From Marinicella sp. (lineage in GTDB: Bacteria > Pseudomonadota > Gammaproteobacteria > Xanthomonadales > Marinicellaceae), in contig OZ246001.1 in the NCBI GenBank assembly GCA_965230295.1, positions 3,232,001 to 3,296,000 on the forward strand: a DNA stretch of 64,000 bases, read 5' to 3'. The translations under genes and the position numbers were made by a program. The notes beneath the pieces were generated by a model. The model saw only the letters and a list, made by a program, of their open reading frames with translations, was not told the DNA's origin and ran no database searches. Positions 6,059-53,035 of the stretch are shown piece after piece. The first letter of the stretch is position 1. The number at the start of each line of letters is the position of its first letter.

Positions 6059-6691
6059 TAAGGAATGTTCTTGGGGCTTCATTCTGATTCATGGTCTGAC
6101 AGGTCTTCATATTTGCTGCGCAAATAAACCGACCTTTACAGACTATTGTCTGAGCAGTTGCTTCGCACTGCATGTCTGTTCTAGACAAAAGTGAAAACGA
6201 CTGCTTACATGGATGTAAGTATGCAGCGATAGCAGGCAGGAATTGTTCCCAACAATTCTCTGCATTCACCCCGTCCTGGGGATCGATGCGGTAGCTGCCG
6301 AGGCGAACATGACTTGCTACCTCGCACGCACTACGGTATTCAAATCGGGCTTCTTTATCTTCGATAAAACCGCCCAACTTTCATTACCTGTGCTATAACG
6401 CCATTCACATAAGGTTTCTTGACTTCGTCAAATCACCATATGTTCATTGGCTATTCTCTTCGCCTCTGATTGGCTTACATGGAAGTAAGTCCTCTGAGGA
6501 GGCAGGATGCCGGTATCAGAGGTGACTACATGGATGTAGGTCTGCCGCGATAGCTAGGAGCGATAGCGGCCGCTATAACAAAAGCTCACGGCTAATCAAT
6601 CATTACATCAAGGCTTCTTTGCTTTGCAAAATCGCCATGATTGCATGATTTGCCTAACCGGCTCGACGGGTCAAGCCGCTCAGCAGCTTTC
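6059..6691 (+). repeat. Modular intergenic palindromic element, longest copy (scaffold plus five inserts)
   Basis: Begins TAAGGAATGTTCTTGGGGCT directly after the upstream stop and ends CAGCAGCTTTC. Shares long near-identical blocks with 49050-49494 (inverted) and 52823-53035. Confidence 0.9.
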
Positions 6692-6721
6692 TTCTGATTG
6701 GACTCAAGCCGACTTTTCAGC

Positions 6722-8566
6722 TCAATACAGCTGATACACCCAGGCCAAAATACCAGAAAGCATGACCCAAGTGATGATGGTTAATGGCACACCAACTTTA
6801 ACAAAATCAGCAAATTTATACCCACCGGCATTCATGACCAACAGGTTGGTTTTATAAGCCATTGGAGTGGCAAAACTCAAGTTGGCACCAAACAAAACAC
6901 CCAGCACAAACGGTTCAACTGGCATGCCCAGGCGCTGTGCAATACTCACCGCAATGGGCGTACCTATCACCGCTGCTGCATTGTTGGATAATATATTGGT
7001 CATGACAGCAATGAAGAATATCAAAATGGCCAATAGCCAGGCAGGTGATAACCCATAGGTGAAGACCACAAACAGGTCGGCCAGGTAATCTGCAGCACCG
7101 GTAATGATCAAAGCCATACCCAGAGCCAGGGAAACTACAATAATCAGGATAACTTGTGCACTTAAGGCATGGGTCGCATCCCGCCACCTCAGACAGCCAG
7201 TTGCAATCAGAACAAAACAGCCAACAGTGGCACTTATGGCTATGGGCAAGAAGCCAAATGCAGCCAATCCGACCACCAGCATCATCACCATCAATGCAAT
7301 AGGCGCTTTTGATGTGTGTGGAAGTTCTTCGCCACCATCCAGTACCAGCAGTGATCCCGCATTTTTTACTTTTTTGATGGCATCATTGGAGCCTTGAACC
7401 AGCAGTACATCGCCAGCTCTGAACATCAATTCCTCAATACCTTGGGAATTGGCCATGGTTTCTTTACCATGTGAATGAACAGCCAATAAAACCAGATCAT
7501 ATTTTGATTTTAATCTGGCGTCTGCCACCCTGACCCGGTCCAACAACGAGCCACTGGTGACCACCAACTCAGCAATTGATTGATCTCCAGCGGTTAACGG
7601 GTTGGCTTCATCAACTTCAATTTCACCCGTATAAAGAGAGCCACCCAACTCAATTTCAAATTCTCTTAAGTTTTCCGAGGTGTCGTTGACCAATAAACTA
7701 TCACCGGCTTTGATCTGCACGTCTGGTAATGTGGCGATGGTGAGTTGCTCGTTGCGGACAATTTTTTGAATGGCTATCTTGCCATCTGTATGATCTCTGA
7801 TTTCAGCTACGGTTTTATTGGCTGCAAAGCCGCCTTCGTTGATTTTAATGGCAGCGGTGAAAATGCGTGGTGAGGTGTTCGCCATGGGTGGTTTTCTGTC
7901 AGGCAGGATTCTCGGAGCAATGAGCCATAAATACAAAATAGCAACCACGCTGGTGATCACCACAGGAATGGCAAAATCAAACATACCGAACTTGGGAACC
8001 CCTAAATCTTCAGCGACCTTAACCACCAGTAAGTTCGTTGAGGTACCAATGGTGGTGGCCATCCCACCCAAAAGCGTAGCCAATCCCATCGGTAACAGTG
8101 TACCCGACGTGGATTGGCCGGTTTTTATAGCAACACTGATCAATACGGGTAACAACAGTACCACGATGGGTGTGTTGTTGACAAAAGCACTGAGTACTGC
8201 ACCAGTGATTAAAGTCAACAGTAACGACAGTGACGGGCTGATTTTCCATATTTTAGCCAGCACCCGACCAATGGGTTCCATGGCGCCTGTTCTGACCAGC
8301 GCCTGGCCGGCAATCATTAAGGCACAAACAGCTATCAATGCTTCATTGCCAAACCCATGGAAAAAATTTCTAACCAGAAACAGTGAGCCATCTTTGTTGG
8401 TGAATGGAAACAGGTGGAAGCCAAGCGCCAATAAACACAAGACCAACAAGCTGGAAGTTTCAAGGGGGATTTTATCTCTTGTGAACAAGATCAATGCCAC
8501 CAAAGTCAGTATCAGTACACCGATGGCATGAGGCTGTGGTGAATTTATGATTAATTCAGATTCCAC
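6722..8566 (-). CDS. SLC13/DASS-family permease with TrkA-C domains
   Basis: SAFVNNTPIV, GGMATTIGTSTNL, NILSNNAAA and SFATPMAYKTN motifs; hydrophilic central TrkA-C region. Confidence 0.92.
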   Translation of the reverse strand: MESELIINSPQPHAIGVLILTLVALILFTRDKIPLETSSLLVLCLLALGFHLFPFTNKDGSLFLVRNFFHGFGNEALIAVCALMIAGQALVRTGAMEPIGRVLAKIWKISPSLSLLLTLITGAVLSAFVNNTPIVVLLLPVLISVAIKTGQSTSGTLLPMGLATLLGGMATTIGTSTNLLVVKVAEDLGVPKFGMFDFAIPVVITSVVAILYLWLIAPRILPDRKPPMANTSPRIFTAAIKINEGGFAANKTVAEIRDHTDGKIAIQKIVRNEQLTIATLPDVQIKAGDSLLVNDTSENLREFEIELGGSLYTGEIEVDEANPLTAGDQSIAELVVTSGSLLDRVRVADARLKSKYDLVLLAVHSHGKETMANSQGIEELMFRAGDVLLVQGSNDAIKKVKNAGSLLVLDGGEELPHTSKAPIALMVMMLVVGLAAFGFLPIAISATVGCFVLIATGCLRWRDATHALSAQVILIIVVSLALGMALIITGAADYLADLFVVFTYGLSPAWLLAILIFFIAVMTNILSNNAAAVIGTPIAVSIAQRLGMPVEPFVLGVLFGANLSFATPMAYKTNLLVMNAGGYKFADFVKVGVPLTIITWVMLSGILAWVYQLY

Positions 8567-8999
8567 GTGATTAAGACTTCAAAATATCCATGATAAAAGT
8601 CTATCAAATCAGGGATAAAACTTGTGTAAAAACTGAACAGAGTTGGTTAAAAGCTTTTTTTTCAACAACTTATCAATGACGTAATAATGACATGATAGTT
8701 CGGTTTTTTTGGTAATGGGTAAAGTGTTGGCTGTCTAATTCATCCTGATTGGCAAATTATTCAGAATATTTCTTAGATTTCTGGGTGTAGAACCTTTTTT
8801 TATTCTAAACATGGTCAATGCAACATAAATTGATAAAAATGCCAATTGAGTTCAAACATTCACCACATCAGTCGTGGTATCATCTCTTGGCGAAAATTCT
8901 TACCCCCGAATTAACGCTTTTTACAAGTTTAAACAAGATGCCATTTTGTTCCCCTTATTTATCGTAATTGAATGGTATTTCATTAAGAGGAGAGATATT

Positions 9000-11900
9000 T
9001 TGAAACACAAGAGTAAACTAAGATCCAGCTTGTTGGTTTTGACTTGCTTGTTGGTTTGTCAGGCTGCCATGGCCACAACCACACGAGTGGGTGCAGAGTT
9101 TGTTGGTGAAACGGTTACCCCGGTGACTGTTACGGTTAATTTAGCCAACGGCACCAAGCCGAACCAATGGAAACCAGGTGACCCGGTCAAAGAGATCCCG
9201 ATGCGCTTTCGTCGCCCCAAAGGCTGGGAGCGTCCTGAGGCCTTGCCACGTGGCTATGGTATAGATCCCCTGGCCTTGAAACAGTGGGATGCCACACCCA
9301 GCAATGGTTTTGGTGGTGGTGCGCAGTTTGACACCCCGCTGGTCAATGTTGATGGCTTGGACTTCACAGGAGTCAATCCATCTGACACCAATGGTGATGT
9401 GGGTATTGACCACTACGTCCAATCAATCAACAACAGTGCCAGTTCAGGGATCTTGATTTTGAACAAAGCCGATGGCACCACTGCAGCGCAGTTTGTCCTT
9501 GATGACATTGCGGCAGGTTCAGGTACCGGTTGTGGGGGCGGCAGAGGCGACCCTGTGATCATGTATGACCAATACGTGGACAACGGTCCAGGTAACCCGA
9601 AAGGCCGTTGGGTGTTGACGGAGTTTACCAGCACTTCATTGTGTATTTACATATCGGTCACCGAAAGCCCGATTGGCCCCACCAATGACAGCACCTGGCA
9701 CATTTATGAGTTCAATTCAGCCTCAGGTGGCTTGCCTGATTATCCCAAGTTTGGTGTTTGGCGTGATGCTTATTACATGGGTGCCAATGAGAGCAACCGT
9801 CAGTATGCCTTTGACCGTGACAACATGATCAATGGTGATCCTGCACGTGGATACCAAGTGTTCAGCACGGTTGGTTTGCCCGGTTTTGGGTTCCAACACT
9901 TGATGCCGGCTGATGCCGATGGAGAGACATTACCGCCGGCTGGTGCGCCGGGTATTTTCATGCGACACCGCGATGCACAGTACCACGGTGATCCAGGCAG
10001 TGATGTGTTGGAGATTTGGGAGTTTACCACCGATTTTGACAACCCTGGCAACAGTGCGATCACCGGTCCGATCAACATCGATGTTTCAGATTTTGATACC
10101 AATTTGGGTGGCACCAACTTTGGTGATTTATCGGTACCACAGCCCGATGGTGCGACCAACCTGTTTCCCTTGAAGCAGCCATTGATGTGGCGTGTTCAGC
10201 ACAGGACATTGGATGACAAGCAATATTTGATTGGAAACATGACCACGGATGTGAATGGTAATGATTACCATGGTGTACGTTGGTGGATTTTAGAGCGTCC
10301 GGCGGCGAGTACGGCCGGCGGTTGGATCTTGTCTGATGAGGGCACTTACACATCAGGTGATGGCATCACCACGGGAGATGGTGTACACCGTTGGATGGCG
10401 TCAGCGGCGATGGATGGTTCAGGCAACGTGGCCATTGGTTACAACACTTCATCGGTGGCAGGTAACAACAACTCGGCAGCTGATGTTTATGCGGGTATGC
10501 GTTATGCGGGTCGATTGGCCTCGGATCCTGCTGGGACGATGCCACGTGGTGAGAACTCGATCATTGAGGGTACGGCATCGAACTCCTCGGGTCGTTATGG
10601 TGATTACACCTCATTGAGTGTTGATCCTGTTGATGAGTGTACCTTCTGGTATACGGCCCAGTACAACACGTCGGGAAATTGGTCGACCCGAGTGGCTTCA
10701 TTCAGGTTTGAGCAATGTGGTTGTTTGTTAAGTATTGATCCTGTTACATTGACATCGGTCAATGCCGACAGTGACAACAACATCAATGTGGCTTGGGATG
10801 ATGCCCCTAATGCAGAAATCACCGAGTATCGGATTTACCGATCAACCACACCAGGTGCTGGTTATGTGTTGATTGACACTGTGGTAGACACCTCACCGGG
10901 TGTAGCCAATTCAGGCTTGTATGATTATGATGACAACAGCGTATCAGCTGGAACCACTTATTACTATGTGGTTCGTTCATCAGATGGTGCCGCCTGTTCC
11001 AGTGCCAACTCTGTTGAATTGTCAGCCACTGCGACAGGTTTGTGTACTTTGGCCCCGGATTTCAATGGTGTGGTCAGTGCGTCCAATAATGCCGCAGCAA
11101 CTTGTGGTATTACAGTCGACTGGACTGCGGGCAGCAGTTTATGCCCAGCCGGTTCAGGTGATCTGACTTATTCGGTTTATCGCTCTACAGATCCTGGTTT
11201 TGTCCCTTCATTGGCCAACCAAATTGCCACTGGCTTGGATGTATTGATCTATGATGATCAAGATCCGGGTTTGGTTTCAGACACTGATTATTACTATGTA
11301 GTGAGGGCCACTGATACTGATAACAGCTTGGAAGAAAGCAATGATGAGGTTGTATCAGCCTTCCCAACAGGAAGTATCACTCCGCAAGTGTTCTTGGAAG
11401 ACTTGAATGCTTACGCCGATATCACTGATGCTCAGGCTGCTGGCTGGTCTACTGTTGCTGATCAGGGTGTCAATGATTGGCGCATCGAGATTGGTGATGA
11501 CAATCCCAATGGCCCATCCAACGGCAGTGGCAGTGCATTCGTGTCTACTGATGTGGCAACGGCCGCTGATAAATCATTGATCACTAAATCTTTTTCACCA
11601 TCAGTCACTTCTGTGTTGAGTTTTTATCACAAACACGATTTTGAATTTGATCCAACTCCTTGGGATGGTGGTGTACTTGAGATCACTTTCGATGGAGGCA
11701 ACAACTGGCAAGATTTGGGTGGACAAATTACCCAAGGCGGTTACAACGTAACCTTAAATGGTAGTGGTGGTGCCAACCCATTAGGAGCGGTTCCTGCATG
11801 GGGTGGTTTACAAGCAACATATACACAAGTCTTGGTTGACCTGGGCCCCTATGCCGGGCAGTTGGTTCAAGTCAGGTGGCGCATGGGTACAGATGCCTTT

Positions 11901-12011
11901 GTAGGTGCGGGAGACTGGGAAATCGATGACATTGAAATCACAGATTCTGGTTCTTTTGGTGTGTGTAATTTGCCACCGAGCGATCTTATTTTTGAAAACG
12001 GATTTGATTAA
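9000..12011 (+). CDS. Large secreted protein: uncharacterised N-terminal beta-rich domain, two Fn3 repeats, C-terminal InhA/cleaved-adhesin-like jelly-roll, DLIFENGFD terminus
   Basis: TTG start at 9000 with GAGGAG upstream; signal peptide ending CQAAMA; Fn3 motifs YRIYRS...TYYYVVRS; DGGVLEITFDGG...VRWRMGTD..GDWEIDDIEI. Confidence 0.8.
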   Translation: MKHKSKLRSSLLVLTCLLVCQAAMATTTRVGAEFVGETVTPVTVTVNLANGTKPNQWKPGDPVKEIPMRFRRPKGWERPEALPRGYGIDPLALKQWDATPSNGFGGGAQFDTPLVNVDGLDFTGVNPSDTNGDVGIDHYVQSINNSASSGILILNKADGTTAAQFVLDDIAAGSGTGCGGGRGDPVIMYDQYVDNGPGNPKGRWVLTEFTSTSLCIYISVTESPIGPTNDSTWHIYEFNSASGGLPDYPKFGVWRDAYYMGANESNRQYAFDRDNMINGDPARGYQVFSTVGLPGFGFQHLMPADADGETLPPAGAPGIFMRHRDAQYHGDPGSDVLEIWEFTTDFDNPGNSAITGPINIDVSDFDTNLGGTNFGDLSVPQPDGATNLFPLKQPLMWRVQHRTLDDKQYLIGNMTTDVNGNDYHGVRWWILERPAASTAGGWILSDEGTYTSGDGITTGDGVHRWMASAAMDGSGNVAIGYNTSSVAGNNNSAADVYAGMRYAGRLASDPAGTMPRGENSIIEGTASNSSGRYGDYTSLSVDPVDECTFWYTAQYNTSGNWSTRVASFRFEQCGCLLSIDPVTLTSVNADSDNNINVAWDDAPNAEITEYRIYRSTTPGAGYVLIDTVVDTSPGVANSGLYDYDDNSVSAGTTYYYVVRSSDGAACSSANSVELSATATGLCTLAPDFNGVVSASNNAAATCGITVDWTAGSSLCPAGSGDLTYSVYRSTDPGFVPSLANQIATGLDVLIYDDQDPGLVSDTDYYYVVRATDTDNSLEESNDEVVSAFPTGSITPQVFLEDLNAYADITDAQAAGWSTVADQGVNDWRIEIGDDNPNGPSNGSGSAFVSTDVATAADKSLITKSFSPSVTSVLSFYHKHDFEFDPTPWDGGVLEITFDGGNNWQDLGGQITQGGYNVTLNGSGGANPLGAVPAWGGLQATYTQVLVDLGPYAGQLVQVRWRMGTDAFVGAGDWEIDDIEITDSGSFGVCNLPPSDLIFENGFD

Positions 12012-12034
12012 ATAAACCCACACCAGTCATTAAG

Positions 12035-12071
12035 AAAGGCCAGCGTGATTTGTCATGTTGGTCTTTTTTTT
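12035..12071 (+). terminator. Rho-independent terminator
   Basis: aaggccagcgtga / tcatgttggtctt stem (with G-U pairs) followed by a T run. Confidence 0.75.
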
Positions 12072-12124
12072 CCCAAAAAAGTATCAAAAAAGGGCGCCAT
12101 GGGGGTTTCAGTCAATTATTTGGG

Positions 12125-12152
12125 TGACAGTGAATATCAATAACTTTCGTAT
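12125..12152 (+). promoter_or_regulatory. Candidate ECF sigma promoter (TGACAGT-N16-CGTAT) for the kinase-ECF operon
   Basis: Same motif and same spacing recur at 15458-15485. Confidence 0.65.
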
Positions 12153-12197
12153 AAACTATATAAGCAATCTAATGGAAAGTTAACCCGGTAATAAGAA

Positions 12198-14849
12198 ATG
12201 AATTCAGAACATTGGAAAAAGGCAATGAGTCATTATGATCAACTGATCAAAATGACTGAGACTGAAAGAGCAAAAGAACTGAGCGCCATTCAGGCAAGTG
12301 ACCCTCCATTGGCAGATGTCTTGATTAAAATGTTTGAGTCTGAAAAAAAACCTCAATTCTTACAGCATGCACCTGAGATTTCGATTGAAGAAATATGGAC
12401 GCAAAATATAAAACCAAACTTTGGTCGTTATAACATCATTGAAAAAGTGGCATTGGGTGGCATGGGAAGAATTTATAAGGCCCAATTAGAGGAAAGTGAT
12501 GTCATTATTCACGTGGCCTTAAAAATGATTCGCAGTGAGCTGTTAAGCGATTCAATGTTCAATCGGTTTCAAGCTGAAAAGAATATATTGTCCGGATTGG
12601 ATCATCCGAATATAGCTGCATTGGTTGATGCCGGTGTGGTAGGTGACATACCGTACTTGGCAACAGCATGGTTTGATGGTCAGCCTTTGAACCGTTATAT
12701 CAAGGATCGGGGCCTTGCGATCAATGAAAAACTGAAGTTATTTTTTCAAGTGTGTGAAGCAGTGATTTATGCCCATGGTCGCTTGGTTATTCATCGGGAC
12801 TTGAAACCAGGAAATATACTTGTTAATGAAGAAGGTACAGTAAAACTTTTGGATTTTGGCATTGCCAAGATGTTGAATGAAAGTCAACATGATGCCACCC
12901 ACACCCATGTTTTCACTCCGGACTATGCAGCACCAGAGCAAATCAACGGCCAGCCGTGTACCACTGCCACTGATGTTTACGCTTTAGGTGTGTTGTTGAA
13001 AGAACTGCTGACCGAAAGCAATCGATTTGAATTCGAAGACATTTCAATTGCATCAAAAATCGAACAAATTTTATCCAATGAAGTGATATTGGCCAGCCAG
13101 TTGGCCAAATCCAATGGCAATCTGGTGATGGCTCAGAAATTGACAGGCCCATTGGATAAGATCATTGCTAAGGCCATGCATGTTGACATAGATCGTCGCT
13201 ACCAATCGGTTGCTGAAATGATGGATGATTTGATCAGGTATAAAAAACATTTACCCATCAAGGCCATGGGCGATGGTTGGTTTTATCGGACTCGCATGTT
13301 TTGGAAGCGGAATGCATGGTCTGGCGCATTTTCGATGCTTTTCGTCATGTCTCTGTTGGTCGGAATGACGGTGAGCTTGAAGCAAAGAAATGAAGCGGTC
13401 ATGGCACAACAAGCAACCTTGATTGAAGCGGAGAAAAACCAACAAATCGTCAACTTTTTCAGAACGATGTTCAATCAAGCGGCTCCATTAGAGGGTGGTC
13501 TTGCTAACATCAGTGTGCAAGAAATGCTCCAAAAAGGTTATGAGGACTTTGACTTTAACCTCATTGATAATCCGGAAACCAAAGCCTATGTTGCTTCACA
13601 AATGGGCTTGCTGTTTGCTGAATTCAGCGATTTTGAAAAACAGCATCATTTGTATGATCTGGCAGCTACAGCTGTGGCCGCTGATTTAGATAATTATGGC
13701 AGTATTTATCTACACCATGCAAATTTTGCAGCCAGTGCTTTGAATGACATGGAACAGCCGCAAGCTGCGATTGAATATATTGAAAAAGCATTGGAATTAT
13801 TAGCCGATATTGAAATAGACTCCAGTAAACGAGCCGAATCAAAACTACATATCGGGAGTTTTTACATGGCATTGGGTCAAGAAGAATCGGCCTTGCAAGA
13901 ATTCATGTCTGTGGAATCGTTTTCTAAGCAACATGATCTGGATGAACAATTGGCCAAAAGTTTTTACTATCAGCACATCTTACAACAGGATAAATTAAGT
14001 CCCGCTGAATCCCTGGAGTTGCTGGAGCAAGCCAGGGCACTGATGATCCAACAACCCAAAGAAAACATAAATATGTTGTTTAGCATCAACAACTCTTTGG
14101 CGTTGCGTTATAAAGATCAGGGCAAATTTCGTTCATGCATCGACTTGTTGAGTGAAGTGGACCATGAATACCGCAATATATATGGCGTTTCGAGTGAAGA
14201 TCATTTGATCAATTTAGCTGATGCACATTTTTATGTAGGTGATTTTGAGCAAGTGGTTGATTTAACAACAAGAGCCATTGCTATCATGCAAGACAAACAA
14301 ATCAATACAGGGTTTGTCTATATGGCGGCCTTGATCATTCAAGCCAGGAGCTTAACGGAATTAAGACAATTCATTGCAGCGGAAGCCAATTATCAGGCTG
14401 CATTACAATTTTTTAATGAAAAATTTCCCAAAGACCACATAGCCGTGGTCACCCTGAATGGGTATTGGATTGATTTTATCGTGAAATCCAATCGAGGTGA
14501 CATGCCTGATCAGCAAGCCTTGAGTCAGATCAACACTTCGGCAGAACAACAACTCAATGCATCAGATCGATCAAAACACAGGTATGTGAATGCGAAGGTT
14601 ATTGCTGCAACGGCTCTTTGGCATTCAGGGCATTTAGCAGCAGCAGAGGAGATGCTGATGCAAGCTTTTGACCAGCATCCCATGCCTGAATCATCAGAAG
14701 ATTGGCGGGTGTCATTGATGATTGCTGGAATTGAACAACTTCGTAAGGACCTGGGAAAGCCTTATGATGATCAAATTAAAAAACTTCATGAACAACAATT
14801 ATTTGCCCAAATTGGTCAGGATCACTGGTATCATGACTTTTTCAAATGA
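12198..14849 (+). CDS. Membrane Hanks-type Ser/Thr kinase with C-terminal TPR region (ECF-associated, PknS-like)
   Basis: GGMGRIY, VALK, HRDLKPGNIL, DFGIAK, TPDYAAPEQ; TM around residues 375-393; helical TPR-like C-terminal half. Confidence 0.93.
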   Translation: MNSEHWKKAMSHYDQLIKMTETERAKELSAIQASDPPLADVLIKMFESEKKPQFLQHAPEISIEEIWTQNIKPNFGRYNIIEKVALGGMGRIYKAQLEESDVIIHVALKMIRSELLSDSMFNRFQAEKNILSGLDHPNIAALVDAGVVGDIPYLATAWFDGQPLNRYIKDRGLAINEKLKLFFQVCEAVIYAHGRLVIHRDLKPGNILVNEEGTVKLLDFGIAKMLNESQHDATHTHVFTPDYAAPEQINGQPCTTATDVYALGVLLKELLTESNRFEFEDISIASKIEQILSNEVILASQLAKSNGNLVMAQKLTGPLDKIIAKAMHVDIDRRYQSVAEMMDDLIRYKKHLPIKAMGDGWFYRTRMFWKRNAWSGAFSMLFVMSLLVGMTVSLKQRNEAVMAQQATLIEAEKNQQIVNFFRTMFNQAAPLEGGLANISVQEMLQKGYEDFDFNLIDNPETKAYVASQMGLLFAEFSDFEKQHHLYDLAATAVAADLDNYGSIYLHHANFAASALNDMEQPQAAIEYIEKALELLADIEIDSSKRAESKLHIGSFYMALGQEESALQEFMSVESFSKQHDLDEQLAKSFYYQHILQQDKLSPAESLELLEQARALMIQQPKENINMLFSINNSLALRYKDQGKFRSCIDLLSEVDHEYRNIYGVSSEDHLINLADAHFYVGDFEQVVDLTTRAIAIMQDKQINTGFVYMAALIIQARSLTELRQFIAAEANYQAALQFFNEKFPKDHIAVVTLNGYWIDFIVKSNRGDMPDQQALSQINTSAEQQLNASDRSKHRYVNAKVIAATALWHSGHLAAAEEMLMQAFDQHPMPESSEDWRVSLMIAGIEQLRKDLGKPYDDQIKKLHEQQLFAQIGQDHWYHDFFK

Positions 14850-14863
14850 CTCGATGTTAAATC

Positions 14864-15427: not shown

Positions 15428-15457
15428 ACAGACACCATCAATTTTTTTACATTTTCT

Positions 15458-15485
15458 TGACAGTTAAATGCAGCCTATCCCGTAT
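15458..15485 (+). promoter_or_regulatory. Candidate ECF sigma promoter (TGACAGT-N16-CGTAT) for the secreted-protein operon
   Basis: Same motif and spacing as 12125-12152; ends 34 bp before the ATG at 15519. Confidence 0.65.
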
Positions 15486-15518
15486 GGGGGAAGACTAAAT
15501 TTAACAAAGGAGAAAATC

Positions 15519-17467: not shown

Positions 17468-17476
17468 TTTGAGGAG

Positions 17477-28786: not shown

Positions 28787-28946
28787 AAGGAATGTCCTTG
28801 GGACTTCATTCACTTTTGTTCTTTACAAAAGTGAAAGCGGCCACGGCGGCCATGGCTTACTACTTCGGGCTTGCACTCTCTGACTCAGCTTGGCTTCGCC
28901 AACCGAGTGCGCCGGTCGAACTGTCCGACAGTTCTCCCAAGTCTGT
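28787..28946 (+). repeat. Short diverged copy of the modular intergenic element
   Basis: AAGGAATGTCCTTGGGACTTCATTCACTTTTGT..ACAAAAGTGAA start; CCAACCGAGTGCG..GAACTGTCCGACAGTTCTC end. Confidence 0.8.
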
Positions 28947-42966: not shown

Positions 42967-43037
42967 GTGATCAAACCTCAGTGCCTTTTGCAGCCATTCC
43001 ACAGAAGGCACTGTTACTTATCATGAAATTGAGGTTG

Positions 43038-43277: not shown

Positions 43278-43297
43278 TTTATTTTTCCTCGATTAAA

Positions 43298-46644: not shown

Positions 46645-46657
46645 CTATTTCTCTGGC

Positions 46658-47590
46658 TTAAAATGAGGCAATTTGTTCGCCACCATCGGCACGAATCAAA
46701 GCACCATTGATCCACTGAGCCTCATCCCTACACAACAGTGAAACCACATCTGCCACATCTTCAGGCGTGGTTAAGCGTTTGAATGGGTTTTTGAGTTTGG
46801 CCACTGATTTCATCCGACCGCTGCCTGGAATGGCTTGCAAGGCTTTGGTGTCGGTGACGCCAGCTTGAATGATGTTTGAACGAATGCCTTGTGGCGCAAA
46901 TTCGACCGCAATTGAGCGTGACACAGACTCCAAAGCCACTTTGGCTGCCGATACCGCCGCATAACCACGCCAGGCCACTGTGTTGCCTTCGCTTGTTAAG
47001 CCCAAGACACGTGCATCATCAGCAAACATATGCGCTGTTGAAAGTTTTTGTGTCCAAGTCAGCAAACTGGTACCCATGCTGTAAATGGTGCGAGACATGT
47101 CTTCGTCTTCAATGAGGTTGTCGCTATACTGAGGTGATTCCAAAGGAAACACTTCGTCTGCATTTTCAGTCAATAATTCTGCTACAGCCGCATTGAGTTT
47201 ACTTTCATCAATGCCTAACTTTTTAGCCAATTCGATCACGCCCTTGTTGTTTTCCTTGTGAACCGGTGCAATGGGCTTGAGGTTGCCAAATGCAATGGAG
47301 TGGAGTAGAACGCGAACCTGTCCGGTTTCACCCATTACACTTCTTAAGCCATCAAAAACTTTGTCCATGCCTTTTTCACTCAAAGCATCCACATTGAAAC
47401 TGAGGAATTGGGTGCCGTATGACTTAACAATTTCGAATTCTTGATTGATTGCTTCCATAGCACCACGGCGGTCTCGATGAACGATGCAAACATTCATGCC
47501 TTGTTCACTGAGTTTCTTCGCGCTGGCCAGACCAAAACCGCTGGAGCCGCCAAGTATCAAAGCCCAATGTTTGTTGTTAAATATATTCAC
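46658..47590 (-). CDS. Enoyl-ACP reductase-like SDR (FabL/FabI type)
   Basis: GGSSGFG; catalytic Y-x6-K (YAAVSAAK); AGVTDTKAL; GTG start with GAGG RBS. Confidence 0.8.
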   Translation of the reverse strand: MNIFNNKHWALILGGSSGFGLASAKKLSEQGMNVCIVHRDRRGAMEAINQEFEIVKSYGTQFLSFNVDALSEKGMDKVFDGLRSVMGETGQVRVLLHSIAFGNLKPIAPVHKENNKGVIELAKKLGIDESKLNAAVAELLTENADEVFPLESPQYSDNLIEDEDMSRTIYSMGTSLLTWTQKLSTAHMFADDARVLGLTSEGNTVAWRGYAAVSAAKVALESVSRSIAVEFAPQGIRSNIIQAGVTDTKALQAIPGSGRMKSVAKLKNPFKRLTTPEDVADVVSLLCRDEAQWINGALIRADGGEQIASF

Positions 47591-47624
47591 TCGAAATTCC
47601 TCGGTATCGTTCAATAAGAAAGAA

Positions 47625-48557
47625 TCATGCAAAGGCCTTAAGGGCACTTTTAACATTGATGACTGATGTGATGTTCACTCCAATGGATTTAAAAAATCCT
47701 CGCAGCGGTCGATTTGGGCCCAGTTCTAAAATGCGTAAAGACTTGAATAGATCCATGTTGTTGCGCCACTTAACACTGCCACTGATTTGTTTGGCCAGAC
47801 CGTTGACCAACTGATCTTTATCTGCGGCATAAAAGTCACCCAGATAATTCGAAGCAACCTGCGGTAATCGGTCAACATTCATGTCAGCTTTGAAATCTTG
47901 CAAGAAGTCAAAATAAGTATTCTCAACGGAATCCATCCACCTGGAATGAAATGCTGAACTGACGGTCAGTGGCACGGCTCTGAATACCGTGTTATTGAAA
48001 TGTTGGGTTAATGCTTCAATGGCATTTTCCATGTCATTTTTTAAACCGCTGATCACCACTTGTTGTTGAGAATTGTCATTGGCCACATCGACTTGATGTT
48101 GATTGACAATGTCTGTAACCTCGTCAAAAGGAATCTTTTCCATGATGATCGCTGTCATGGTGCCCTCGGCAGTAGCTTGATTCATCAGTTCACCGCGTTT
48201 GGTTACCATTTTTAAGGCACTTTCAAAACTGAGTACGCCTGCAGCAGTTAAAGCCGAGTACTCTCCCAATGAATGGCCGGCAAAATACTCAGGGCATAAA
48301 TCAAACTCACTTTTTAGGGCTTCAAACATGGCCACTTCTGCCACCAAAATGGCAGGTTGGGTGTAATTGGTTTGATTCAACAGGTCTGTATTTTCATGAC
48401 AAACATGATAAATATCGAATGGTAGCCATTCATTTGCTCTGGAAAAGACATCAGCAGCGGCTGAGTACGTTTCAATGAAATCCTTAGCCATTCCCAGTTT
48501 TTGAGCACCTTGACCTGGAAATACCAAGCCATCGAATTTAGTTTTGGGTGTGTTCAT
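47625..48557 (-). CDS. fabD: Malonyl-CoA:ACP transacylase
   Basis: FPGQGAQ, TQPAI, GHSLGEY, VSSAFHS. Confidence 0.92.
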   Translation of the reverse strand: MNTPKTKFDGLVFPGQGAQKLGMAKDFIETYSAAADVFSRANEWLPFDIYHVCHENTDLLNQTNYTQPAILVAEVAMFEALKSEFDLCPEYFAGHSLGEYSALTAAGVLSFESALKMVTKRGELMNQATAEGTMTAIIMEKIPFDEVTDIVNQHQVDVANDNSQQQVVISGLKNDMENAIEALTQHFNNTVFRAVPLTVSSAFHSRWMDSVENTYFDFLQDFKADMNVDRLPQVASNYLGDFYAADKDQLVNGLAKQISGSVKWRNNMDLFKSLRILELGPNRPLRGFFKSIGVNITSVINVKSALKAFA

Positions 48558-49049
48558 GAAAATTATGGTACTTGTTCATCTGTTGTTCTGAGTGAGCCTC
48601 ATGTGCAGTTGACACTTGGTCTCTCGATTTCGCACATTGTTGATGTTCATAAATACCCGTGTCATCAAAGTTTCTGGTCATGAATGGGTTTTTCTATACA
48701 TAACTGAAATTAGTGATTCAGTTACAGCAAACAAGTGTACGCCGAAAACTCATTGTATGTATGATGAAGTTCTTTTCAAGTGCTTGACTGAAATAATGGA
48801 AACTTTGAAACAAACGTTTGAAAATAACGGCTGCTATGGGTGTGTAACCGTTTTTTGATATTCCGATTAAAACCTGTACATAAAAGCCTTAAACATTGAA
48901 AAAGCTGTTCTCTTTTTTAAGTGAACAAATGTAAGCTTTTATCGAGCGACTTTGACTACGACTTGGTTTGCGTGTTATTCAAGAAAACAAGTCAACATTG
49001 AGTTGGCCTGGGAAGCGGGGCAGCCAGGTACTTTTACAGCTGAATATGG

Positions 49050-49494
49050 GAAAGCTGCTGAGCAGCCTGATCCGCCGAGCCGGTTAGGCAGCGCAGGTGA
49101 TGAAAGGTTGGCGGTTTCATCGAAGATGAAGAAGCCTGCCTAGAATGCCGTAGCGCGTGAATGAAATCATGGTGGTTTGACGAAGTCAAGAAACCTTATG
49201 TGAATGGCGTTATAGCACAGGTAATGAAAGTTGGGCGGTTTTATCGAAGATAAAGAAGCCCGATTTGAATACCGCAGTGCGTGCGAGGTAGCATGTCATG
49301 TTCGTCTCGGCAGCTACCGCATCGATCCCCAGGACGGGGTGAATGCAGAAAATTGTTGGGAACAATTCCTGCCTGCTATCGCTGCATATTTACATCCATG
49401 TAAGCAGTCGCTTTCACTTTTGTCTGGAACAGACATGCAGTGCGAAGCAACTGCTCAGACCATGAACCAGAATGAAGCCCCAAGAACATTCCTT
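49050..49494 (-). repeat. Inverted copy of the modular intergenic element
   Basis: Reverse complement matches 6060-6440 almost exactly (minus a 54-bp nested insert) and carries the same terminal CAGCAGCTTTC. Confidence 0.9.
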
Positions 49495-49544
49495 CATAGC
49501 TATTGGCATGTCCTATACCATCAACACAGGCATTCAAGCCATGT

Positions 49545-50357
49545 TCACCATTTTTTTCGAGGCAAAAAATGTTTGTGCTTTTCAGCTTCGTGGGTTTGGT
49601 TGTAGGCTTTGATTTTGCTGTTTTTACCCAACAGGATTTTCATTTGATAAAAAGTCTCTCTCATCAGTACTGCACCACGCGAACTGAACCAGCCTTTGTT
49701 GTAGAGTTTTTTCACGGCTGCCACTGAATCTGGTGATTGTTGACTCATCTCTTCAGCCATAGACTCAGCCATGGCCATCGGGTCGTCGGTTAAATGGGTG
49801 ATGAGTCCGGCGGCTTGTGCCTCTTTGCCATCGATGATTTTTGCCGTCATGGTCAACTCTTTGGCCACATCCATGCGACAATGCTGCCTCAAAGCCAATA
49901 AACCACCCATATCAGGAATCATGCCCCAGCGACCTTCCATGATGGAAAGTGATGCATCAGGCGTGGCAATGCGAACATCTGCACCCAGGGCGATGTGTAA
50001 TCCGCCACCCCAACAACGCCCATGAATCACAGCAATCACCGGTGCGCCTACCTTCTGCCACTGGGTCGAAACTTTCTGAGCTGTGTTGGCCCGCCAAGGG
50101 TTCAGTTTAAACAGCAGCTTCATAGGACTTTTGATTGATTGCATCATTGACTTAACATCCAAACCCGTACAAAAATCTGGACCTTGGCCAGAAATGATCA
50201 CAGCACGGATGCCTCGGTTCTTACTCAAAGCTTTGGCTGTATCAACAATGGCCTCAAACATGGGCATGTCTAAGGCATTGTGTTTATCAGGACGGGCTAA
50301 GCTCACGTAAGCAATGCTGTGTTTGATTTCTACTTCAACTCTCTTGGGTTTGCTCAT
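49545..50357 (-). CDS. Crotonase/enoyl-CoA hydratase family protein
   Basis: RPDKHNAL, FCTGLDV, HGRCWGGG, EGRWGMIPDMGG. Confidence 0.92.
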   Translation of the reverse strand: MSKPKRVEVEIKHSIAYVSLARPDKHNALDMPMFEAIVDTAKALSKNRGIRAVIISGQGPDFCTGLDVKSMMQSIKSPMKLLFKLNPWRANTAQKVSTQWQKVGAPVIAVIHGRCWGGGLHIALGADVRIATPDASLSIMEGRWGMIPDMGGLLALRQHCRMDVAKELTMTAKIIDGKEAQAAGLITHLTDDPMAMAESMAEEMSQQSPDSVAAVKKLYNKGWFSSRGAVLMRETFYQMKILLGKNSKIKAYNQTHEAEKHKHFLPRKKW

Positions 50358-50672
50358 TGATGTGATTTAATGATTCTCAATTAAATCATTACTTTAACCA
50401 AAGTTGGCTTGGGTGTCTAGACAGCAATTTACGACAATCCTGAGTTCTTGATTTCAAATTACATTCACCCTGCCAGTAGCCCATGGAATAATTTTAGTCA
50501 TTCCTCTTAAGTAAATGACAATACTAGTCTGATTTCTATGATGGTATTTGTTAAATGCTTGTGTTAATGATTTCATATTAAATTCTTTAAGTTGATGAAT
50601 ATATTTTCCATTCATTCTCAAGAAATGAGAAACCGTGCGGCCAAGATGTGGTTTTCACAACAGGAATACAGC

Positions 50673-50924
50673 ATGCAACAACTCGTTATTAAACTCAGTC
50701 CGGAAGTGACGCAGGGTTATTTAAGAATGGCTCAAGATCATAAAGACTCTGCCGAAAAACATGAAAAGGGAGTTTCAAACTTTCAACTGGACATCAATAT
50801 GGCCATGGTTGCTGGCTTATGCTTTGCCGACATAGATGTTAATGGGAAAAACATCAATTCGGACTCAGACACTGAGGACCTAGAGGTTCAGTTGATCGAT
50901 TTCAGTCAGGCGACAACCAGATAA
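50673..50924 (+). CDS. Hypothetical protein
   Basis: CAGGA RBS before the ATG at 50673; 83 aa. Confidence 0.5.
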   Translation: MQQLVIKLSPEVTQGYLRMAQDHKDSAEKHEKGVSNFQLDINMAMVAGLCFADIDVNGKNINSDSDTEDLEVQLIDFSQATTR

Positions 50925-50955
50925 ACCATGATTACAATGACTACAGGAACTCACC

Positions 50956-51246
50956 ATGAAACCAGATTTAAACACCATTCCCAATGACCCAAAGACCACT
51001 GTGCTTTTTGAACAGCAGGGTGTGTTTGATGACATACCTGCTTGTTACCAGGCTTGGCAACACGATGGCATCCGCGGAGAAAGCATTGTTTTTTTGAAAA
51101 AAGATTTGAAAAACCGCAAAGACACCGATTTGATTCACAAAGTCAAAGCATCTAAGTTGGTCAGGTCCAACAGTCAGATCACATTCAGCAGGAACCCACC
51201 TGATTATTTATTCATTAACTTCAACATTCAACTTGACAGTTTATGA
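50956..51246 (+). CDS. Hypothetical protein
   Basis: CAGGA RBS; 96 aa; W.HDGIRGES motif. Confidence 0.65.
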   Translation: MKPDLNTIPNDPKTTVLFEQQGVFDDIPACYQAWQHDGIRGESIVFLKKDLKNRKDTDLIHKVKASKLVRSNSQITFSRNPPDYLFINFNIQLDSL

Positions 51247-51317
51247 CCCACATGGAAGTGGGAAATGCTGACAATTGTCAGGAACAATTACAGTGGACCC
51301 GCATGGAGGTGGGAAAT
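51245..51317. repeat. Free-standing hairpin modules related to inserts of the modular element
   Basis: gacccacatggaagtgggaaat and gacccgcatggaggtgggaaat flank aattgtcaggaacaatt; compare cttacatggatgtaag and aattgttcccaacaatt at 6204-6257. Confidence 0.7.
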
Positions 51318-51329
51318 ATTGAAGTGCAT

Positions 51330-52499
51330 CTACCGTTCAATCGCTTCAATCACCTTTTTAATCAAGGGGTCCATGGCGTCTCTTTTGATCCATCGAGCCA
51401 CCACCACCAGGTCATGTTCCGGATCAACATGAACCATGTTGGTGCCAGCACCCAGATGGGTGATGCTGCTTGTGGAGGCACTGGGAAGGAATTTTTTGTC
51501 ATCGTTTAGAAACCAGTTCATATACCCATAGGATGTGTTTTGTTCAGTGGGTGTTGTTGCCAGTTCATACCACTCTTTTGAGAAAATCTGCTGGTCTTGC
51601 CATTGGCCTTTTCGTAAAGTCAAATAGCCAAACCTGGCCTGATCATAGGCATTGATAAACATGCCGCCACCCCAATGTCCACCTCCACTGACTGATTGCA
51701 CCTTCAATCCATCAATCATGACCCATGAGTTTTCATAACCATGCCAGCGCCAGGTGTCAGATGCCCCTATGGGATCCATCAAATGTTGTTTCAGCACTTG
51801 TGGTAAAGGGCGACGCCACAATTCCAGTAAGGCCAGAGCAAAGGCATTTACCCTGACATCGTTGTATTTCCATTGGGTACCTGCTTTCGGAACTTCACGA
51901 TCAGGCCATGCAAAAGCATCGTCGCCAACTGGACGGTCACCCCAATCGGGTTTGTCCCATAAACTGCCTTCCCAGGCACTGGTCTGACGCAGCATGTGAT
52001 CCCAGGTGATGGTCTTGTTGTGTTCGGATTTAAAATATTTGCTGTCGATGTAGGTCGAAATCGGTTCATTCAAATCCCTGATTAACTGCTGATCATAGGC
52101 CAACGCGGCAACCGAAGACAGGAAGCTCTTTGAAACACTGTGGGTCATGTCTACTTTGTTTGGTAACCCCCAGACAGCAACAATGTAACCATGACGGAGT
52201 ATGATGCCAGTTTGTTCACCACGAATGGTCGTGGGGCCGATGATTTGATTGTAAGGTTCTCGGGCAAACCCAAGCGCGCTGGCCAAGGCCTGATCACGCG
52301 GTCGATCTGATTCCTGGGCTTGTGCATATCTGACAGCTTGTGCGAGTTTGGCTGCTGAGAACCCCACTTGCTCAGGTGCTTTATGTTGCCATTCTGCGTT
52401 GTTTTTGACTGGGTAATAAGGTTCTTCAGCTTGGCTGATCAGGCTGCCAAATAACATGGTGGCCATTAAAAAGTACTTAAACATCAGTGTGCTCCACAT
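51330..52499 (-). CDS. Secreted serine hydrolase (beta-lactamase class C-like)
   Basis: SVSK (SxxK), KYND, ARFGYLTL; signal peptide. Confidence 0.9.
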   Translation of the reverse strand: MWSTLMFKYFLMATMLFGSLISQAEEPYYPVKNNAEWQHKAPEQVGFSAAKLAQAVRYAQAQESDRPRDQALASALGFAREPYNQIIGPTTIRGEQTGIILRHGYIVAVWGLPNKVDMTHSVSKSFLSSVAALAYDQQLIRDLNEPISTYIDSKYFKSEHNKTITWDHMLRQTSAWEGSLWDKPDWGDRPVGDDAFAWPDREVPKAGTQWKYNDVRVNAFALALLELWRRPLPQVLKQHLMDPIGASDTWRWHGYENSWVMIDGLKVQSVSGGGHWGGGMFINAYDQARFGYLTLRKGQWQDQQIFSKEWYELATTPTEQNTSYGYMNWFLNDDKKFLPSASTSSITHLGAGTNMVHVDPEHDLVVVARWIKRDAMDPLIKKVIEAIER

Positions 52500-52515
52500 G
52501 AATCAATTGAGTCTT

Positions 52516-52787
52516 TAAGGAATACTCTAGGGTCTTATGCTTACTGTTCCAGCTCACCCTGTACACTTACATTCATATAGGCGTCATTCAAATTTATTTC
52601 CGACAAATTTGAAAACGACTACAGTCTACGGCATTCATTGATCGCTTCTTTGACTGCGATGAAAACACGCTTGCTTCATCGCCTGACCTGTGAGTATGTC
52701 TTACAATCTCGGGTTTACGCCCTCTGATTCGCTTCGCTCACCAACCGAGTGCGTCGGTTGAGCTGATATCAGCTCTCCTAAGTCAGT
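52516..52787 (+). repeat. Diverged copy of the modular element (first of a tandem pair)
   Basis: TAAGGAATACTCTAGGG start; TTCAAATTT..AAATTTGAAAACGAC hairpin; CTACGGCATTC..GCTTCTTT module; CCAACCGAGTGCG..GAGCTGATATCAGCTCTC end. Confidence 0.75.
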
Positions 52788-52822
52788 AAGGTTAATGCAA
52801 AGGCCGCTTAAGTACAATCAAA

Positions 52823-53035
52823 TAAGGAATGTTCTTGGGGCTCCATTCACTTTTGTTCCAGACAAAAGTGAAAACGACCGCGGCGAACATGACATACTAC
52901 CTCGCACGAATGACGCCATTCACATAAGGTTTCTTGACTTCGTCAAATCACCATATGTTCATTGGCTATTCTCTTCGCCTCTGATTCGCAAAGCTCACCA
53001 ACCGGCTCGGCGGGTCAAGCTGCTCAGCAGCTTTC
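52823..53035 (+). repeat. Minimal scaffold copy of the modular element (second of the tandem pair)
   Basis: Corresponds to the 6059-6691 copy with all five inserts absent. Confidence 0.9.

Follow-up and report, generated by a model that had tools for sequence, protein, structure and literature searches.

A modular family of structured intergenic repeats in Marinicella and its possible spread as a non-autonomous mobile element

The window, a stretch of 64,000 nucleotides from a 4.0-Mb Marinicella chromosome (G000), carries five copies of a dispersed repeat (Table 1). All of the copies listed in the initial annotation are present, and each starts with (T/A)AAGGAAT and closes with a hairpin followed by TCC. 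Most of the coordinates given there stood, except that two copies end earlier (at 28937 instead of 28946, and at 52778 instead of 52787) and the last one extends to 53036. The terminal stems AAGCTGC/GCAGCTT, GAGCTGA/TCAGCTC and GAACTGT/ACAGTTC, the 5' stems TTCACTTTTGT/ACAAAAGTGAA and TTCAAATTT/AAATTTGAA, and the GC-NNN-GC mini-hairpins were quoted correctly. The 633-nt copy begins immediately 3' of the TAG stop codon of a gene for a 1337-aa sensor kinase/AraC protein and, folded as RNA, has a z-score of -4.2 against 20 shuffles. It amounts to the 149-nt core with blocks added at fixed junctions, as had been described, but block D had been split in two and the other borders lay a few bases off. 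The 445-nt copy is anti-oriented to the replication fork, and its A cassette is shortened through loss of the sequence between GTCTGA direct repeats. The contigs that carry other copies part from the window sequence exactly at 49494 and, for the last copy of the window, at 53034-53036.

Table 1. Copies of the repeat in the window, with their scaffold segments, cassettes and helices
Feature	Position	Strand	Remarks
Full-length copy, 633 nt	6059-6691	+	One of 7 copies this long
Scaffold s1	6059-6084		633-nt copy
Cassette A	6085-6176		633-nt copy
Scaffold s2	6177-6201		633-nt copy
Cassette B	6202-6301		633-nt copy
Scaffold s3	6302-6325		633-nt copy
Cassette C1	6326-6394		633-nt copy
Cassette C2	6395-6455		633-nt copy
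Scaffold s4	6456-6474		633-nt copy
Cassette D	6475-6655		633-nt copy; D1 6475-6525 and D2 6526-6655
Scaffold s5	6656-6691		633-nt copy
Core-size copy, 151 nt, second subfamily	28787-28937	+	Covariance-model score 154.8 bits; P1 ATGTCC/GGCCAT (one mismatch); H1 TTCACTTTTGT/ACAAAAGTGAA; P2 GCACTC/GAGTGC; terminal hairpin GAACTGT-ccg-ACAGTTC, then TCC
445-nt copy	49050-49494	-	Shortened A, then B, C1, C2 and a second C1-like cassette
Diverged copy, 263 nt	52516-52778	+	Read directly; nhmmer match; P1 ATACTC/GAGTAT; H1 TTCAAATTT/AAATTTGAA; distinct insert in the 5' junction; K-type cassette at site B; terminal hairpin GAGCTGA-ta-TCAGCTC, then TCC
213-nt copy	52823-53036	+	Core plus cassette C2 only
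P1	52829-52834/52885-52890		213-nt copy
H1	52846-52856/52862-52872		213-nt copy
P2	52977-52979/53004-53006		213-nt copy
Conserved loop TCTGA	52980-52984		213-nt copy
Conserved loop CCAACC	52998-53003		213-nt copy
Terminal hairpin	53018-53034		213-nt copy; then TCC

With the 213-nt copy as query, BLASTN returned 219 alignments in the genome, and 97 matches to the 5' end were found, 65 of them paired with a 3' end at most 700 nt away; these counts lie far above chance and bear out the earlier description of a multi-copy dispersed element. The chromosome holds about 107-114 loci of the family, with a core element of 149-151 nt and longer copies that reach 633 nt. Discrete length classes are found among the 65 complete copies: 149/150 nt (15 copies), 236 nt (7), 633 nt (7), 356 nt (4) and 420 nt (3). 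Head-to-tail arrays of units without the terminal hairpin occur as well. Relative to their flanking genes, intergenic copies lie sense in 20 cases, antisense in 18, between convergent genes in 18 and between divergent genes in 9, and no gene family recurs beside the elements among the 219 element places examined. No multi-copy IS was found in G000.

The family is non-coding and, so far as searched, limited to Marinicella and one related lineage, with a copy number that ranges across genomes from 0 to more than 100. Plasmids, phages and viral contigs gave no match to the element. The expectation that it belongs to no known Rfam family was borne out, since the window has no match at gathering score and positions 5950-6800 have none even at E up to 5; four copies compared with Rfam gave chance-level matches only (13-19 bits). 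No prior description of the family was found in the literature searched.

As a single strand, the core folds into three domains, two of which are closed by long-range helices (P1 and P2), and not into the one hairpin scaffold described initially. In domain I, the 6-bp helix P1 is followed by an internal loop that is asymmetric and conserved (TTGGGNCTTCA / AAGCGRCCNCGGC) and by the 11-bp hairpin H1; domain II consists of P2, a conserved loop TCTGA / CCAACC and hairpin H3; and domain III of a 7-bp terminal hairpin (H5) with a fixed CTG/CAG centre, followed by TCC. In a 33-sequence alignment, both-sided changes occur in 24 of 36 pairs as against 14.9±1.8 in shuffles, a level reached by 0 of 500 shuffles, and the same alignment contains 126 double-change cells, where shuffles have 33.8 and slid controls 10-25. 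The claim that stems covary while pairing is kept therefore holds, with compensatory changes well above both kinds of control, and the covariation supports P1, P2, H1, H3 and H5. The closing pair of H3 is paired in all 33 sequences (UA in 24, CG in 9), and at least nine Watson-Crick versions of P1 were seen. One-sided changes of the G.U type are scarce, at 10 cells against the 126 double changes. At the P2 pair 117-159, 20 sequences have U.G and 9 a Watson-Crick pair; at the pair 14-60, which extends P1, U.G occurs in 32 and U-A in 8. The mispairs in P1 and H5 (31 G.T and 50 A.C) give no clear strand signal. Among 14 copies of exactly 149 nt, diversity is 0.25 in loops, 0.11 in the linker and 0.033 in stems. 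Folding z-scores of the copies lie between -2.0 and -4.7. The fold is also retained, on different pairs (CCGTTC/GAACGG, TCCCATTTCG/CGAAATGGA and GGCTAG/CTAGCC), by the diverged repeats of G027, a genome from another family. That selection acts on structure, as had been proposed, is upheld in the sense that pairing is kept by selection or by a correcting process.

Hairpin cassettes of four kinds (A, Y, K and b) are held, in many combinations, at four fixed, structurally tolerant sites. One is on the 5' side of H1, a second in the junction that follows this hairpin, a third in the linker joining domains I and II, and the fourth in the loop of H3; the scaffold s1 to s5 carries A, B, C1, C2, D1 and D2. 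Blocks A, B and D are not clean insertions, since each takes the place of a few bases of the core. The proposal that the element accretes other hairpin modules is only partly right, as the cassettes were never found outside the scaffold and hence are not independent mobile hairpins.

Set at any shift against the last 31 nt in reverse complement, the first 30 nt match at no more than 11 of 30 positions, and H1 and H5 are unrelated in sequence, the two end hairpins being unlike each other. Target-site duplication was at its best at k=2, in 9 of 65 copies against 5.75 expected, with 1 of 65 at k=4 and 0 of 65 at k of at least 5. The family thus does not fit a classic MITE, as it lacks terminal inverted repeats, which the initial annotation had argued, and also a target duplication. 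Of the 65 copies, 45 have A at -2; beyond this the left flank is A/T-rich, with no fixed tetranucleotide before the 5' end.

Copy positions are not shared between species. Non-orthologous copies are 95-99% identical between species and their flanking DNA aligns at 68-80%; this identity could reflect function instead of recent spread. In relatives, the genes that flank the copies of the window lie on different contigs from the element matches, and the M. pacifica copy in L054 is missing from G036 and G038, where its flanking genes are present. An exact empty site was not found. Neither BLAST nor the covariance model detected a copy in G003, a Marinicella genome, and G012, which was outside the sample of the covariance model, has none by BLAST. 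Short-read assemblies are broken by these repeats.

The complete copies of G000 are co-oriented with the replication fork in 48 of 65 cases (p 1.5e-4), and the bias rises to 32 of 36 in the size classes with at least three copies (p 2e-6), reaching 15 of 15 in the 149-nt class and 7 of 7 in the 633-nt class. It persists where both flanking genes are anti-oriented (17 vs 5). With local GC skew as a proxy, the bias was not reproduced in other species, where 26 of 48 loci and 15 of 26 core-size copies are co-oriented; in G031 about 10 copies are co-oriented and 9 anti-oriented, and a nearly identical multi-copy subfamily there has 6 of 7 co-oriented, a small number. A mechanism acting on single strands would predict a strand bias such as that in the amplified classes of G000.

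The only Y1_Tnp gene in G000 is RAYT-like and lies between REPs of a separate family (GGAGCGNNGACTTCAGTCNNC, about 26 copies) that bear no relation to the element. Its orthologues occur in 4 of 24 genomes, two of which, G003 and G012, have no element by BLAST, and the Y1_Tnp profile found no match in the element-rich genomes G032 (99% complete), G034, G016 and G027. The suggested link to an HUH/RAYT transposase is consequently not supported, given that the only Y1 gene has other REPs and that Y1 and element do not co-occur. IS110 (PF01548) had 0 matches in G000 with a control that matched in 6 of 14 genomes, and an IS110 bridge-RNA end is therefore not supported. No TnpB or RVT_1 gene was found in G000, and in the search for Y2 (IS91) the control matched nowhere.

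As the best explanation of these data we propose, with about an even chance of being right, that the repeats form a new structure-dependent, non-autonomous mobile family that spreads as DNA. A strand-specific process of copying or insertion would use the folded top strand as its substrate, at times when this strand is exposed as single-stranded lagging-strand template at forks, and would leave no target duplication and need no inverted ends. Variants may arise through recombination between copies and slippage at hairpin bases, and those that keep the three domains would continue to amplify and so give the discrete size classes. The mobiliser would be neither the resident RAYT nor any Y1 transposase. 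A bolder version, which we consider unlikely, is that of a new kind of mobile element, whose entire 150-nt body, a folded single strand with three domains and conserved loops, would be copied into the lagging-strand template by a host or unrecognised enzyme other than Y1, IS110, TnpB or a reverse transcriptase, would grow by cassettes at permissive loops, and would form its head-to-tail arrays by rolling-circle-like read-through. Against mobility, the conserved unpaired blocks, which are spread across all 150 nt, and the long-range helices resemble transposon ends less than they do a functional RNA or a protein-bound ligand.

The strongest rival is a possible though distinctly less probable reading in which the repeat is a cis-acting or free-standing structured RNA whose fold binds a protein or controls mRNA processing or stability, with the cassettes as expansion segments; it is compatible with a mobile origin. 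The covariation of long-range P1 and P2, the loops and junctions conserved across species and in G027, the concentration of variation in loops and linker, and the low folding z-scores all argue for it, as do top-strand G.U positions (117-159 and 14-60) that would be A.C on the opposite strand, and highly expressed genes are also co-oriented with the fork. Yet copies in co-directional gaps show no orientation preference, promoter-like sequence was not seen by eye in the element or the flank logo, and the terminal hairpin is followed by TTTCC only, which makes it a poor intrinsic terminator. The rarity of G.U-type changes, with A.C mispairs at least as common as G.T, and the lack of an Rfam match also speak against an RNA, and some 100 near-identical copies at non-orthologous sites would need a spreading mechanism anyway.

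A host signal on single-stranded or extruded DNA, selected locus by locus as a lagging-strand priming or restart site or as a nucleoid-protein site, would account for the fork-relative bias independent of gene orientation, for the strictly Watson-Crick compensation, and for the conserved unpaired motifs with their high cross-species conservation; BIMEs, for instance, bind IHF and gyrase. We regard it as improbable all the same, as positions are not conserved between species, the bias is not seen in other species, G003 has no copy by BLAST or covariance model, and a copy number from 0 to over 100 is unsuited to an essential signal. Slightly more doubtful still is mobilisation by an HUH enzyme that works on hairpins in single-stranded DNA, whether a RAYT or a Y1 transposase of the IS200/IS605 type. 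The sub-terminal hairpin at each end, without inverted repeats or target duplications, and the presence of a RAYT-like Y1 gene in G000, would fit such an enzyme, and so would the bias of the amplified classes to the lagging-strand template, in the way that PMC3333891 states for IS200/IS605; against it stand the separate REPs of that gene, the lack of its orthologues in element-rich genomes, the four such genomes without a Y1_Tnp match, the dissimilar end hairpins and the variable 5' flank. The proposed spread as DNA through a mobiliser of another kind remains our preferred reading.

Small structured intergenic repeats (REP, BOX, ERIC, Correia) are common, and how most of them move is unknown or disputed. 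The present family is an unusually clean case, in a genome without multi-copy IS, with discrete recently amplified size classes, a covariation-defined fold with long-range helices, a diverged relative in another family and, in this genome, near-complete fork bias of the amplified classes. Should the bias reflect insertion, it would point to a replication-coupled route of mobilisation that needs none of the transposase families searched; should the fold serve as RNA, the repeats would make up a structured RNA of many copies, with expansion segments, that has not been described before.

Among known systems, a role as a transcribed, structured RNA of this protein-binding or mRNA-controlling sort has been reported for ERIC and proposed for BOX. 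BOX of S. pneumoniae and S. suis (boxA-boxB(n)-boxC, with boxD/E/F variants) is, like this family, intergenic and strongly structured, with fixed end modules and variable internal modules that fold alone, so that adding or losing one leaves the overall fold intact. Variation in BOX comes mainly from tandem boxB copies at one site, whereas four sites and four cassette kinds are used here. The sizes are similar (67-637 bp for BOX according to PMC3049150, 149-633 nt here), but BOX as described there has terminal inverted repeats and target duplications, both lacking here. Judged from that description, BOX also belongs to a different phylum and would have no sequence relation to this family, which in addition shows the fork bias in G000.

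The REP/BIME and RAYT system shares with this family hairpin-based intergenic repeats, complementarity kept through base changes, mosaic assembly and a proposed single-strand action at forks (for REP/BIME in the account of PMC3333891). REPs, however, measure 30-40 nt, carry a 5' GTAG and depend on a RAYT gene that has REPs on its flanks; the unit here has 149-151 nt, three domains and long-range helices and so exceeds a REP in length and complexity, as noted initially, and the resident RAYT is flanked by a different REP, so that the family does not fit a REP/BIME. Non-autonomous, palindrome-associated elements derived from IS200/IS605 likewise have sub-terminal hairpins, no inverted repeats or target duplications, and a lagging-strand bias (here in G000 only). 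They differ in having similar hairpins at both ends, insertion 3' of a fixed tetra- or pentanucleotide and a required Y1 transposase; the end hairpins of this family are dissimilar, its flank is loosely A/T-rich with no fixed target oligonucleotide, and Y1 is absent from several element-rich genomes, so that the ends do not support derivation from IS200/IS605. ERIC/IRU elements of enterobacteria are, like this family, intergenic and 100-150 nt long; they are reportedly strongly conserved between genera at non-orthologous sites, and some copies are said to carry insertions at fixed internal sites. As PMC2229807 describes it, ERIC is a single imperfect palindrome with short terminal inverted repeats and a TA duplication, whereas the present element is asymmetric, with three domains and neither feature. 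In the same account, the ERIC transcript folds as a long stem-loop with an orientation-dependent effect on mRNA stability.

All five copies that the initial annotation had named in the window were found in the sequence, each starting with (T/A)AAGGAAT and finishing with a 7-bp hairpin and then TCC. A genome-wide BLASTN search with the 213-nt copy gave 219 alignments in the Marinicella genome under study (G000), a single contig (C1) of 4,008,074 bp and 44% G+C, whose genus is supported by the titles of related loci and by taxonomy; the window spans 3232001-3296000 of this contig. End-specific queries (5', 26 nt; 3', 36 nt) detected 97 5' ends, 66 of which were paired with a 3' end, 65 of those at a distance of no more than 700 nt. 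An nhmmer profile of the core marked 107 clustered places in this genome, and merging with the end pairs gave 114 loci. Copy lengths are discrete (Table). One further place in the window shows a partial, weak resemblance to the 5' end module and is probably a decayed remnant.

Mapping of each complete G000 copy onto the 633-nt window copy resolved scaffold segments s1-s5 and cassette blocks at fixed junctions. Cassette combinations are numerous, e.g., A alone, D2 alone, C2 alone or A with D2, and cassettes A, B and D are not clean insertions but take the place of some few bases of the core. As read from the sequences, B and the heads of D1 and D2 are variants of one unit, a CTTACATGGATGTAAG-type hairpin plus stem, which in some copies carries an extra 49-nt sub-insert, and C1, C2 and the D2 tail are variants of a second unit, a long irregular hairpin around GGCTTCTT-stem-loop-AAACCGCC. 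The A block is nearly unchanged across scaffolds of different subfamilies, which points to exchange between copies. The idea that cassettes are free mobile hairpins was rejected, since all 'A-only' and 'B-only' BLAST clusters sit within scaffolds of other subfamilies; no cassette block was found outside a scaffold in G000.

Table. Modules and length classes of the element, and related or neighbouring features
Feature	Position	Reference	Remark
Scaffold s1	1-26	633-nt copy	
Scaffold s2	119-143	633-nt copy	
Scaffold s3	244-267	633-nt copy	
Scaffold s4	398-416	633-nt copy	
Scaffold s5	598-633	633-nt copy	
Block A	27-118	633-nt copy	
Block B	144-243	633-nt copy	
Block C1	268-336	633-nt copy	
Block C2	337-397	633-nt copy	
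Block D1	417-467	633-nt copy	
Block D2	468-597	633-nt copy	
Length class 149/150 nt		G000	15 of 65 complete copies
Length class 236 nt		G000	7 of 65
Length class 633 nt		G000	7 of 65
Length class 356 nt		G000	4 of 65
Length class 420 nt		G000	3 of 65
Classes with one or two members		G000	29 of 65
Array	1313048-1313525	G000:C1	four 122-nt units
Array		G008 contig C50	155-nt units
Arrays, two		G015 contigs C19 and C12	
Solo 5' ends	2086850, 2122463, 3144787	G000:C1	all - strand
169-bp unit	701205-701373	G000:C1	inverted 26-nt 5' ends at borders
Remnant of 5' end module	62488-62513	window	
Antisense ORF	6000-6377	window	- strand
Y1_Tnp gene	1669261-1669824	G000:C1	L009 1300-1863; outside window
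Duplicated segment	8985-10729	window	second copy at G000:C1:1827740-1829484
ORF of 1045 aa	8874-12011	window	
Tandem repeat	2691506-2698548	G000:C1	period ~783 bp
Tandem repeat	2929350-2931935	G000:C1	period ~258 bp

The fold of the core, comprising domains I (long-range helix P1 and hairpin H1), II (P2 and H3) and III (terminal hairpin H5), was drawn from the sequences and then counted over an alignment of 33 diverse core-size copies, taken from G000 as well as other genomes. Pairs changed on both sides numbered 24 of 36, against 14.9±1.8 after shuffling, and none of 500 shuffles reached the observed value. Double-change cells amounted to 126 as compared with 33.8 in shuffles and 10-25 with slid partners, and 88% of the cells were paired versus 34-45% with slid partners, one-sided changes of the G.U type being rare (10 cells). 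Covariation supports P1, H1, the long-range P2, the closing pair of H3, and H5. P1 exists in at least nine Watson-Crick versions (ATGTTC/GAACAT, ATGTCC/GGACAT, ATGCCC/GGGCAT, ATGCTC/GAGCAT, ATGCCT/AGGCAT, ATGATC/GATCAT, ATTCTC/GAGAAT, GTGTTC/GAACAC and ATGTCT/AGACAT), the three inner pairs of P2 are GC in 21 and CG in 11 copies, CG in 23 and UA in 9, and CG in 25 and UA in 5, and the closing pair of H3, paired in 33/33, is UA in 24 and CG in 9. Between the helices lie the conserved unpaired blocks TTGGGNCTTCA, AAGCGRCCNCGGC, TCTGA, CCAACC and GGCGGGTC. In the 14 copies whose length is exactly 149 nt, loops had a diversity of 0.25, the linker 0.11, junctions 0.06 and stems 0.033. Folding energies were modestly better than those of shuffles on either strand and as RNA or DNA (core z -2.0 to -4.7; 633-nt copy z -4.2).

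A local hairpin ACCG..CGGT upstream of H5 was dropped because its three pairs never covary, and the long-range P2 was put in its place. Also rejected was an RNAalifold proposal of a long helix, 97-130, since the mini-hairpin, and not this helix, compensates for a G-to-A change at position 102. Hammerhead and k-turn motifs were discarded upon a by-eye check against consensus sequences. Over 228 distinct matches, the P1 and H5 cells comprised 1540 Watson-Crick pairs, 31 G.T, 50 A.C and 30 others, mispair counts that single out no strand; two G.U positions on the top strand, P2 pair 117-159 and the P1 extension pair 14-60, hint at the top strand.

The Rfam search revealed no match of the element at the gathering score and, with E relaxed to 5, none that is meaningful. 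One frame of the core is open, starting at an ATG directly after AAGGA; we treat this ORF as spurious because its frame is not kept across cassettes or species: cassette lengths of 64, 65 and 97 are not multiples of three, and the ATG is missing from pacifica-type copies. Fourteen long copies, one of them in the window, share an antisense ORF of 97-128 aa that spans element positions 1-319 and enters different, unrelated flanks. It is probably spurious as well, and could be mis-annotated as a gene family.

Complete G000 copies are intergenic and lie in either orientation to genes, as judged from a crude ORF map. The ends are not inverted repeats, as the initial annotation had stated, and no target duplication was found in the flanks of the complete copies, the only flank signals being A at -2 in 45/65 and G four bases past the final CC in 49/65. 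In eleven of the 65, including the window copy at 6059 (6056-6061), the start lies no more than 3 nt to either side of the stop codon of a co-oriented upstream gene, and the element's own TAA can act as that stop. Such starts may reflect a target preference, or the survival of only those insertions by which the reading frame is closed immediately. Mobility is indicated by syntenic sites in relatives that lack a copy, found by searches with flanking DNA in the genus and five other genomes. The two genes that enclose the copy at M. pacifica locus L054 have no element between them in G036 and G038. In the same search, the element copies of these two genomes showed 95-99% identity to the L054 copy, against 68-80% in the alignments of flanking DNA. 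No base-exact empty site was recovered from contigs of X1-X3 or from the flank searches in the genus and five other genomes, the latter because intergenic DNA is too diverged. The contigs of X1-X3 showed breaks and joints that all derive from other copies, and confirmed the borders at 49494 and 53034-53036.

GC skew places the G000 origin at ~1.71 Mb and the terminus at ~3.82 Mb. Relative to the replication fork, the top strand lies on the lagging-strand template in 48/65 complete copies (p 1.5e-4) and 77/114 loci (p 2e-4), a bias independent of gene orientation (17 vs 5 among copies whose two neighbouring genes are both directed against the fork) and unchanged by shifting origin or terminus by ~0.1 Mb. 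It is carried by the multi-copy classes, with 32/36 co-oriented versus 16/29 in the rest (Fisher p 0.004), the 149-nt (15/15), 633-nt (7/7) and 420-nt (3/3) classes being uniformly oriented. No such bias was found in other species (26/48) by a local-skew proxy that reproduces the G000 bias (47/65). In G031, ~10 copies are co-oriented and 9 anti, with 6/7 for its nearly identical multi-copy subfamily. A single-strand step coupled to the fork, as the introduction of PMC3333891 describes for IS200/IS605, agrees with the strand bias seen in the amplified classes.

The initial annotation had suggested mobilisation by an HUH enzyme of the RAYT or IS200-like type. This was not supported in G000, where the sole Y1_Tnp gene, RAYT-like and of 187 aa, is flanked by its own, different inverted REPs (GGAGCGNNGACTTCAGTCNNC). 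These form a separate family of ~26 members in G000, 4 of them within 400 nt of an element, without fork bias (13/26). Orthologues of this gene occur only in G031, G003 and G012, of which G003 lacks the element by BLAST and covariance model, and G012 by BLAST, this genome lying outside the covariance-model sample. Y1_Tnp is present in 16/24 Marinicella genomes and has no match in the element-rich G032 (99% complete), G034 and G016, nor in G027; the Y1 family, which the strand bias would suggest, fails the co-occurrence test. Searches with working controls found IS110, TnpB and RVT_1 families absent from G000; in the Y2/IS91 search the control itself matched nowhere. There is no multi-copy IS in G000, and no repeat of at least 650 bp resembles one. 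Only one 5'/3' pair was separated by more than 700 nt (1410 nt); it was rejected as an autonomous parent, being two convergent elements that enclose a beta-propeller-like gene, and regions bracketed by inverted copies contain ordinary genes. No gene family recurs next to elements at the 219 places examined, and the gene families and neighbourhoods covered yielded no mobiliser candidate.

A structure-dependent, non-autonomous mobile repeat fits best, with a mechanism that we infer. A function as an RNA or a protein ligand is kept in play by the long-range helices and conserved loops, and may apply as well. Among the closest known kinds are REP/BIME, hairpin mosaics tied to a RAYT in the account of PMC3333891, and ERIC, for which PMC2229807 describes stem-loop transcripts with an orientation-dependent effect on mRNA stability. 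BOX, as presented in PMC3049150, is similarly modular (67-637 bp) but has TIR and TSD, of which the element has neither.

By BLAST, the element was found in 11/18 other Marinicella genomes and in 0/12 genomes that represented eleven further families of the order. A covariance model run over 151 genomes of the order matched in 14, namely G000, 11/12 other Marinicella sampled, G049 of another genus of the family (weak matches) and G027, of a different family that it alone represents in the set (16 matches, best 83.8 bits). In G027, the fold is maintained by other base pairs, and the unpaired blocks are those of the Marinicella element. A 3'-motif scan of one genome per species gave matches in Marinicella records and gammaproteobacterial bins; scattered ones in high-G+C actinobacteria were taken as chance. 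Plasmids and phages gave no match, nor did a pattern search of viral contigs, and none of the listed papers on Marinicella and repeats dealt with repeats of the genome, as judged by title or abstract.

Other forms of the element were as well observed. Head-to-tail arrays of 2-4 units (122-155 nt) in several genomes (Table) contain domains I and II and lack the terminal hairpin. About nine solo 26-nt 5' ends occur in G000, three of which adjoin convergent genes whose TGA stop is thereby located within the repeat. The 169-bp unit has a MITE-like look owing to the inverted 5' ends that bound it, and apparently arose by recombination at the palindromic H1. Internal sequence related to its own is found after the solo 5' ends at 1049394 and 251049 in G000.

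Other repeats were also noted. Two long tandem repeats are presumably inside very large repetitive genes. The 1745-bp duplicated segment of the window is 99.9% identical to its second copy and lies within an ORF with no Pfam match; part of a large gene was recently duplicated here, giving two copies.
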